Virus record (IMG/VR): IMGVR_UViG_2737471838_000005
Origin: a virus
Taxonomy: Duplodnaviria; Heunggongvirae; Uroviricota; Caudoviricetes
Direction: 5' to 3' (one strand)
Length of the DNA stretch: 18,295 nt
The position numbers were made by a program, and so were the translations under genes. Position 1 is the first letter of the stretch, and every line of letters begins with the position of its first letter. The notes beneath the pieces were generated by a model, which saw only the letters and a list, made by a program, of their open reading frames with translations, was not told where the DNA came from and did not search any database. This document shows positions 2,756-2,927 of the stretch, piece by piece.

Positions 2756-2915
2756 AAAACAGAGAAAGGAAACGACAGAGGCCCAAAAGCTCGTTTTCAG
2801 CACCTGTCGTTTCCTTTCTTTTCAGGGGGTATTTTAAATAAAAACATTAAGTTACGACGAAGAAGAACGGAAATGCCTTAAACCGGAAAATTTTCATAAA
2901 TAGCGAAAACCCGCG
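2756..2915 (-). promoter_or_regulatory. cosB-like region with inverted R elements (terminase small-subunit binding sites)
   Basis: gagaaaggaaacgacag (2762-2778) and ctgtcgtttcctttctt (2804-2820) form an inverted pair of the GTCGTTTCCTTTCT motif, as in lambda cosB R3/R2, lying between cosN and the Nu1 start. Confidence 0.6.
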
Positions 2916-2927
2916 AGGTCGCCGCCC
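2916..2927 (-). other. cosN 12-nt cohesive-end sequence (GGGCGGCGACCT on minus strand)
   Basis: Plus strand aggtcgccgccc is the reverse complement of the lambda cohesive end GGGCGGCGACCT. Flanking sequence (CGCGGGTTTTCGCTATTTATGAAAATTTTCCGGTTTAAGGC on minus) matches the lambda left end as I remember it. Confidence 0.75.

Follow-up and report, generated by a model that had tools for sequence, protein, structure and literature searches.

A complete-looking lambda-type cos site in the recently decayed Qin prophage of Escherichia coli ZYB62

The Qin prophage of E. coli ZYB62 very probably retains a complete cos site of lambda specificity, which persists as a passive relic of a recently decayed Qin-family phage and can be expected to be a competent substrate for a terminase supplied in trans. 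The site lies in an 18,295-nucleotide stretch of DNA (IMG/VR record IMGVR_UViG_2737471838_000005; here referred to as the window) that is 100% identical to the ZYB62 chromosome between ydfJ and rspB. The insertion in ydfJ beside rspB together with the Qin gene set, as determined from the RefSeq annotation of ZYB62 in comparison with that of K-12, identifies the element as Qin, and K-12 Qin occupies the same site (ydfJ to rspB) with the same gene order. What we describe is, as a feature, the already known cos and nohA-type relic of the Qin family. The annotated genes in ZYB62 are, in order, tfaQ, a partial tail fibre gene, a partial J, a partial small terminase gene, ynfO, ydfO, gnsB, cspI, rzpQ, rrrQ, essD, cspB/F, ydfT (Q), ydfU, rem, hokD, relBE, flxA, dicB, ydfD, an exonuclease gene, xis, and int.

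An 11-bp candidate att core (GAAATCCATAA) is present at both prophage borders, at window coordinates -3292 and 18333, just outside the window, where it splits ydfJ, and the N-terminus otherwise missing from YdfJ is encoded directly beyond the int end. Based on these borders, the ZYB62 element is a 21.6-kb remnant inserted in ydfJ. A search for att repeats of at least 14 nt across the element found none. In ZYB62 Qin, int (426 aa) and xis are intact while dicA, dicC, and O are deleted, unlike in K-12 Qin, in which int is presumably the pseudogene intQ; the ZYB62 variant may still be excisable. As in K-12 Qin, the remnant keeps rem and the toxin-antitoxin modules hokD and relBE intact (window 11488-12241). 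The element also has five cold-shock-family genes (cspI, cspB, ynfQ, cspF, and ydfK, the last of which is outside the window), and two cspA-type thermoregulator 5' leaders map to the minus strand upstream of cspI and cspB (4800-5185 and 7663-8086). A match to the Rfam IS009 sRNA family (219 bits) is located inside tfaQ (35-233, minus strand). Elsewhere in the ZYB62 chromosome, at 2390700-2394000 and about 57 kb from cos, there is a filamentous-phage-like cluster with genes for a II/X-family replication protein, a major coat protein, an attachment protein, and G7P-2.

Subsites and specificity of the Qin cos

A preliminary description of this DNA, made from the sequence, reported an intact-looking lambda-type cos at 2756-2927, with a 12-nt cohesive end and cosB repeats that are essentially lambda-like. 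On the minus strand, window 2990-2740 corresponds to lambda DNA in which the right end is joined to the left, and we mapped the following features there:

2957-2951, minus strand: cosQ (GGGTCCT), the packaging-termination subsite; identical to lambda 48473-48479
2928/2927 on the minus strand and 2916/2915 on the plus strand: predicted cosN nicks
2927-2916, minus strand: cosN cohesive end GGGCGGCGACCT; exact match to lambda
2878-2910, minus strand: I2 (lambda bp 18-50), between cosN and cosB; identical to lambda
2875-2860, minus strand: cosB R3, small-terminase binding site CATTTCCGTTCTTCTT; one G>A relative to lambda
2837-2849, plus strand: I1, between R3 and R2, a candidate site of bending by IHF; best match to WATCAANNNNTTR (one mismatch)
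2805-2820, plus strand: cosB R2 TGTCGTTTCCTTTCTT, inverted relative to R3 and R1; identical to lambda 108-123
2777-2762, minus strand: cosB R1 TGTCGTTTCCTTTCTC; identical to lambda 151-166

The cohesive-end sequence has a single exact match in the window, against 0.05 matches expected by chance at ≤1 mismatch, and 430 nt around cosN align gap-free to lambda with 97% identity; on these two grounds, we rejected a chance match. The segment from lambda 48487 to bp 53, which includes all of cosN and I2, is identical in the window (2943-2875), and so is lambda bp 74-101 around the IHF match. CosQ lies ~30 bp upstream of cosN, as in lambda, R2 and R1 were detected as an inverted repeat, and the ATG of Nu1 is at window position 2738. 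Using the published 238-bp definition of cos (lambda 48446-182; PMC4856287), from which the limits of I2 (lambda bp 18-50) were also taken, the full cos extends over about 2747-2984. The range originally proposed contains cosN and cosB; it omits cosQ and the left flank of cosN and leaves the minus strand unstated. The complex-cosB architecture comprises three R sites with an IHF site between R3 and R2 (PMC4669245). In the window, we identified three R sites, of which R2 is inverted, and an IHF-consensus match between R3 and R2. The preliminary description suggested comparing the cosQ/cosN/cosB spacing with that of lambda; in this comparison, the two cos sites agree in the order, orientation, and spacing of all subsites, and the subsite sequences are identical except at bp 54.

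The change at lambda bp 54 (window 2874), a G>A at the edge of R3, is the sole change inside any subsite, and among the sequences compared it is common only to the 48.7-kb Qin-type phage PhiR42_1 (PV340562) and K-12 Qin. In R3, bp 56, 58, and 59 are the positions of known importance (PMC4669245), and bp 56-59 in the window are identical to lambda. A search for the disabling changes that would have spoken against a usable site thus found none in cosN, R1, and R2, and only the bp 54 substitution, outside bp 56, 58, and 59, in R3. Because cosQ, I2, and the I1 core are also unchanged, we rejected a degenerate cos. Lambda is distinguished from phages 21 and N15 in packaging specificity by R3 bp 56 and 59 and by TerS residues 20 and 24 (PMC4669245). 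R3 bp 56-59 and Nu1 residues Q20 and E24 are unchanged, here and in PhiR42_1 Nu1, and the recognition helix of ZYB62 Nu1 is identical to that of lambda; the unchanged residues 20 and 24 point to lambda-type packaging specificity.

Relative to lambda, the ZYB62 cos, which has no cognate terminase in cis, differs by 11 substitutions in 238 bp. Ten of these are in spacers, and only one is in the subsites, which make up 128 of the 238 positions (binomial P = 0.003). This avoidance of the subsites is as would be expected if both lineages had been under packaging constraint. Judged by its sequence, the cos looks complete and intact, with lambda packaging specificity. Its complete identity, from -60 to +200, to the cos of PhiR42_1, a deposited phage with a full Nu1-A-head-tail block, speaks for intactness as well and is indirect evidence that terminase could cut and package from it, and so does the lambda-like DNA-binding region of Nu1 speak for an intact site. 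The original observation of an intact-looking site is thereby borne out, as the match to lambda extends to every functionally mapped position, the one edge base of R3 aside, and the same holds for the likeness of the cohesive end (exact) and the cosB repeats (R1 and R2 identical; one change in R3).

Decay of the prophage around cos

From int to pinQ, the genes of the full-length Qin-type lambdoid phage PhiR42_1 are arranged as in ZYB62 Qin. The two are 99.7-99.9% identical over the early and late blocks (window 13634-2344 and 18348-13633) and about 97% identical over the J and tail-fibre remnants. PhiR42_1 carries a complete Nu1-A-head-tail block and cI-cro-cII-O, which ZYB62 Qin is without, and keeps segments of 7.1 kb, 15.1 kb, and 5.6 kb that are deleted in ZYB62. 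A literature search found no paper on the PhiR phages; that PhiR42_1 is viable is therefore taken from its GenBank entry, which gives a complete genome and ECOR13 as the propagation host. The part of the window next to cos contains the following features:

1-576, minus strand: tfaQ
576-1447, minus strand: C-terminal remnant of the side tail fibre gene, a mosaic allele
1448-2346, minus strand: internal fragment of the tail-tip gene J; 95.8% identical to lambda 15670-16574
2345-2346: Nu1-J deletion junction, at which lambda 583 is joined to 15670; about 15.1 kb gone
2229-2738, minus strand: truncated small terminase Nu1' (equivalent of nohA/nohQ); native residues 1-130 followed by a 39-residue out-of-frame tail

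Using blastn, homology to lambda was found to end at bp 583 (window 2346) and to restart at lambda 15670 inside J. The corresponding 15.1-kb deletion spans Nu1 codon ~130 to J codon ~56, and PhiR42_1 24083-39166 is absent. This deletion removed the C-terminal ~50 residues of Nu1, all of A, W, B, C, Nu3, D, E, FI, FII, Z, U, V, G, T, H, M, L, K, and I, and the N-terminus of J. The loss of the terminase large subunit had already been recognized, and gene A is indeed absent; that account understated the loss, since the Nu1 C-terminus and all head and tail genes are gone too. In PGAP annotation, Nu1' is a partial pseudogene and the J fragment is a partial "host specificity protein J." In alignments, Nu1' matches PhiR42_1 Nu1 and K-12 NohA at every one of residues 1-130; K48R and A75T are the sole differences from lambda in this part, and Q20 and E24 of the recognition helix are unchanged.

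The 7.1-kb deletion relative to PhiR42_1 is at window 13633/13634, where cI/dicA, cro/dicC, cII, O, and their neighbours are gone, and the 5.6-kb deletion removed the J C-terminus, lom, and the stf N-terminus. An IS3 insertion lies just outside the window. Near the 7.1-kb deletion, the genes for the division inhibitor DicB and the lysis protein YdfD are intact (13716-14092); their repressor is lost and their promoter probably so. The DicF sRNA was not detected in the window at the Rfam gathering threshold, nor did a 26-mer for it give a match. Window 1266-1447 had no match in PhiR42_1 (megablast) or lambda (blastn, E 1e-5). Phages Kati, ev099, and mEp332 have tail-fibre genes that match it at 99% identity, and we rejected novel DNA in favour of a mosaic stf allele.

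These comparisons are consistent with a recent decay of ZYB62 Qin, through three deletions and the IS3 insertion, from a 48-kb phage resembling PhiR42_1, which would leave the cos as a passive relic without a resident terminase. The exact Nu1'-J' junction is present in only 11 of 5,426 complete E. coli genomes, which argues that the ZYB62 decay product is recent. Two circumstances account for the survival of cos, namely the chance start of the 15-kb deletion within Nu1, at a point 583 bp downstream of cosN, and a time too short for point mutations. From positions -60 to +200, cos is 100% identical to that of PhiR42_1. Using the rate from the flanking 11.3 kb, which is 99.66% identical to PhiR42_1, 0.84 differences would be expected in 251 bp and none was seen (P = 0.43). 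Selection for cos retention is therefore not supported, and the intactness of cos is no evidence of selection in the remnant.

Like ZYB62 Qin, the K-12 prophages Qin (nohA/nohQ) and DLP12 (nohD) have a cos beside a truncated Nu1 homologue and no gene A. Over the 583 bp that include cosN, cosB, and Nu1, K-12 Qin, in which cos is beside nohA, has no differences from ZYB62. The deletion end points differ: residues 1-130 of Nu1 are fused to the J fragment in ZYB62, whereas residues 1-178 are fused to stfQ in K-12. On the cosQ side (window 2928-3119; 192 bp), ZYB62 has 12 substitutions relative to K-12 Qin, which is identical to lambda there. The shift is a mosaic breakpoint exactly at cosN between K-12 Qin and ZYB62, consistent with exchange at cos; the event may predate decay and belong to the free-phage stage, and it is no proof of activity in the remnant.

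Orphan cos sites and potential helpers in E. coli genomes

Orphan lambda-type cos sites are ordinary in E. coli, most genomes of which have at least one lambda-type cos that is not accompanied by a lambda-type gene A. Among the 5,426 complete genomes, the 251-bp lambda-type cos was found at 8,799 places in 4,591 genomes and lambda-type gene A at 5,390 places in 3,788 genomes, so that thousands of lambda-type cos sites have no lambda-type gene A nearby; about 800 genomes have a lambda-type cos and no lambda-type gene A at all. The neighbours of these cos sites are annotated in RefSeq as the "DNA-packaging protein" nohA or nohD. Potential helpers are also common, with lambda cos-Nu1-A present at ≥80% coverage in 3,259 of the 5,426 genomes. 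In ZYB62 itself, there is one other Nu1-like or J-like place among the matches listed for the junction query. E. coli W, LY180, and others carry a gene A that is 100% identical to that of PhiR42_1; going by the gene A match alone, full-length Qin-type prophages may persist in common laboratory and industrial strains.

Cutting, packaging, and recombination in trans

With its own terminase gone, any use of the ZYB62 Qin cos must be in trans. During lambda packaging, terminase binds cosB, nicks cosN, and then proceeds through cosB and Nu1, staying on the cosB end as Complex I while the cosQ-side end is exposed to nucleases (PMC4669245, PMC4856287); termination requires a downstream cosQ-cosN (PMC4669245). 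If a co-resident or infecting phage provided a lambda-type terminase, Nu1 dimers and IHF would assemble on R3-I1-R2, and gpA would then nick cosN at 2927/2916. We infer that the Qin cos is likely a competent substrate for such cutting.

The direction of packaging at the Qin cos is toward low window coordinates, with the tail-fibre remnant and tfaQ first to enter. The 6.2 kb of the element downstream of cos comprise Nu1', J', stf', tfaQ, IS3, pinQ, and ydfK. Host DNA lies beyond, with ydfJ, ydfI, dcp, marRAB at 24.5-25.6 kb, and lsr ending at ~47 kb, and 15.4 of the 21.6 kb of the element (ynfO to int) are on the unprotected cosQ side. The orientation of cos thus indicates that capsid-bound DNA would come from the tfaQ, pinQ, and ydfJ side and not from the side of Q, the lysis genes, the toxin-antitoxin modules, and int. 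Abortive one-cos packaging would start at cos, take up Nu1', J', stf', tfaQ, IS3, and pinQ, and continue into host ydfJ, dcp, and marRAB (~25 kb). Allowing ≤3 mismatches in 19, we found no second cosN in the 60 kb downstream of cos in ZYB62, and packaging could therefore not terminate. A transducible unit for lambda heads has two cos sites in the same orientation ~38-51 kb apart; the Qin element is 21.6 kb long and has no second cos in 60 kb. Being less than half a lambda genome in length, the excised element would need to be packaged as a dimer, and since the immunity and replication block (cI/dicA, cro/dicC, cII, and O) is deleted, concatemers would not be made. The prophage is therefore unlikely to be transferred efficiently as a unit.

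These results bear on the proposal in the preliminary description that a helper lambdoid phage could package the element in trans, making the region mobilisable despite its defects. On such an account, the defective prophage would behave as a satellite or cosmid, packaged by a helper terminase and transferred in helper capsids. Its cos is intact and lambda specific, int and xis are intact between candidate att cores, the 21.6-kb circle would as a dimer measure 43.3 kb or about 89% of the lambda genome length, and lambda-type terminases are present in about 60% of complete E. coli genomes. Packaging of a terminase-defective prophage in trans is, moreover, already published: in O157 Sakai, an IS interrupts nu1 of Sp4, and the packaging of this prophage is most likely due to the terminase of Sp14, whose cos is identical (PMC2669165). 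ZYB62 Qin resembles Sp4 in lacking a functional terminase and in having a cos identical to that of a terminase-proficient relative. However, Sp4 is near full length and is packaged only after amplification via the replication of a neighbouring prophage (PMC2669165), whereas ZYB62 Qin is 21.6 kb and has no head, tail, or replication genes, and the concept fits it poorly. With replication and immunity deleted, a monomer circle would have a single cos and fill less than half a head, and in situ most of the element (15.4 of 21.6 kb) is on the wrong side of a cos that has no partner within 60 kb. Cos phages have been reported not to perform lateral or generalized transduction (PMC12829572; PMC8575938). 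Cos-type PICIs such as EcCICFT073 likewise combine int with a lambda-like cos and need helper terminase and capsids (PMC6739421, PMC9026076), but they have their own replication, helper-responsive regulation, an Rpp that redirects TerS, and a size suited to packaging, none of which ZYB62 Qin has. We rejected a PICI or satellite origin because O, cII, cI, and cro are deleted, no pri/rep-, alpA-, or rpp-like genes are annotated, and the whole is a lambdoid remnant. Altogether, we consider transfer of the element as a satellite improbable. Of the original proposal, cutting in trans is plausible and has a precedent in Sp4, while packaging falls short for want of a terminating cos and concatemers; mobilisation of the region is not supported, given the position of most of the prophage on the cosQ side, the missing second cos in 60 kb, the length of under half a headful, and the lost replication genes.

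A terminase cut could also matter through recombination. The double-strand break, with its unprotected cosQ-side end, would be expected to provoke recombination and to favour exchange of ynfO, the lysis genes, and Q with infecting lambdoid phages. The cos might then be mainly a recombination hotspot, at which Qin late genes are rescued into phage to give lambda-qin-type hybrids and are mobilised by recombination rather than packaging. In support of this, recombination of lambda has been shown with DLP12, Qin, and Rac, all defective prophages of K-12 (PMC3945230), and 10 of 19 sequenced lambda × DLP12 junctions adjoin cos, which is included in the homology of DLP12 to lambda and where De Paepe et al. 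attribute the junctions to terminase-made breaks (PMC3945230). Recombination with DLP12 was ~100-fold more frequent than with Qin or Rac (PMC3945230). In the DNA analysed here, the mosaic boundary between the K-12 Qin and ZYB62 alleles is exactly at cosN, and many lambdoid phages match the region at 96-99% identity on either side of cos. On the other hand, this boundary may have arisen between free phages, De Paepe et al. measured Qin recombination at the tail-fibre genes and not at cos (PMC3945230), and a hotspot would be a consequence and not a selected function. That the Qin cos acts as a break and recombination point during growth of a lambda-type phage in the strain is likely; that this is its main role is a tentative reading, to which we give rather less than even weight.

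Two further readings would assign the relic an activity against phages or on host DNA. As an anti-phage decoy, Nu1' without its gpA-binding C-terminus, together with the chromosomal cos, would titrate or poison an invading lambda-type terminase. Residues 1-130 are perfectly conserved among the ZYB62 allele, K-12 NohA, and PhiR42_1, the TerL-binding domain missing from Nu1' is the C-terminus of TerS (PMC4669245), and satellites interfere with the helper small terminase, as described for PICI Rpp (PMC6739421). Yet the conservation of Nu1' is fully explained by recency, as the flanks are 99.7% identical, and Nu1' is a pseudogene according to PGAP; moreover, the different end points in K-12 (1-178) and ZYB62 (1-130) are as for random decay, and the exact junction occurs in only 11 genomes. 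We find such a decoy barely credible. Packaging from a single chromosomal cos has a reported parallel in lambda: Sternberg and Weisberg are said to have described, in 1975, "doc" one-cos particles that result from in situ packaging of an unexcised prophage. There, packaging likewise starts at a single chromosomal cos and goes via the left-arm side into host DNA with no terminating cos; the lambda prophage, however, supplies its own terminase and heads, whereas ZYB62 Qin would depend wholly on a helper. A literature search for "docL" particles found no relevant paper. It is highly improbable that, while a lambda-type phage infects or is induced, the orphan cos serves as a chromosomal terminase entry point that launches one-cos packaging of ydfJ-dcp-marRAB-lsr, or that Nu1' and cos form a decoy that lowers helper yield. 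If true, either would contradict the statement that cos phages do no lateral transduction, and one-cos packaging from an orphan cos would be a cos-phage analogue of lateral transduction.

We therefore favour the reading of the Qin cos as a passive relic that a lambda-type terminase would likely cut in trans. Qin is a textbook cryptic prophage, and the importance of its cos is small beyond correct annotation, for which the site should be placed on the minus strand with cosQ included. Breaks at such cos sites would be a route by which the genes of cryptic prophages re-enter circulating phages.
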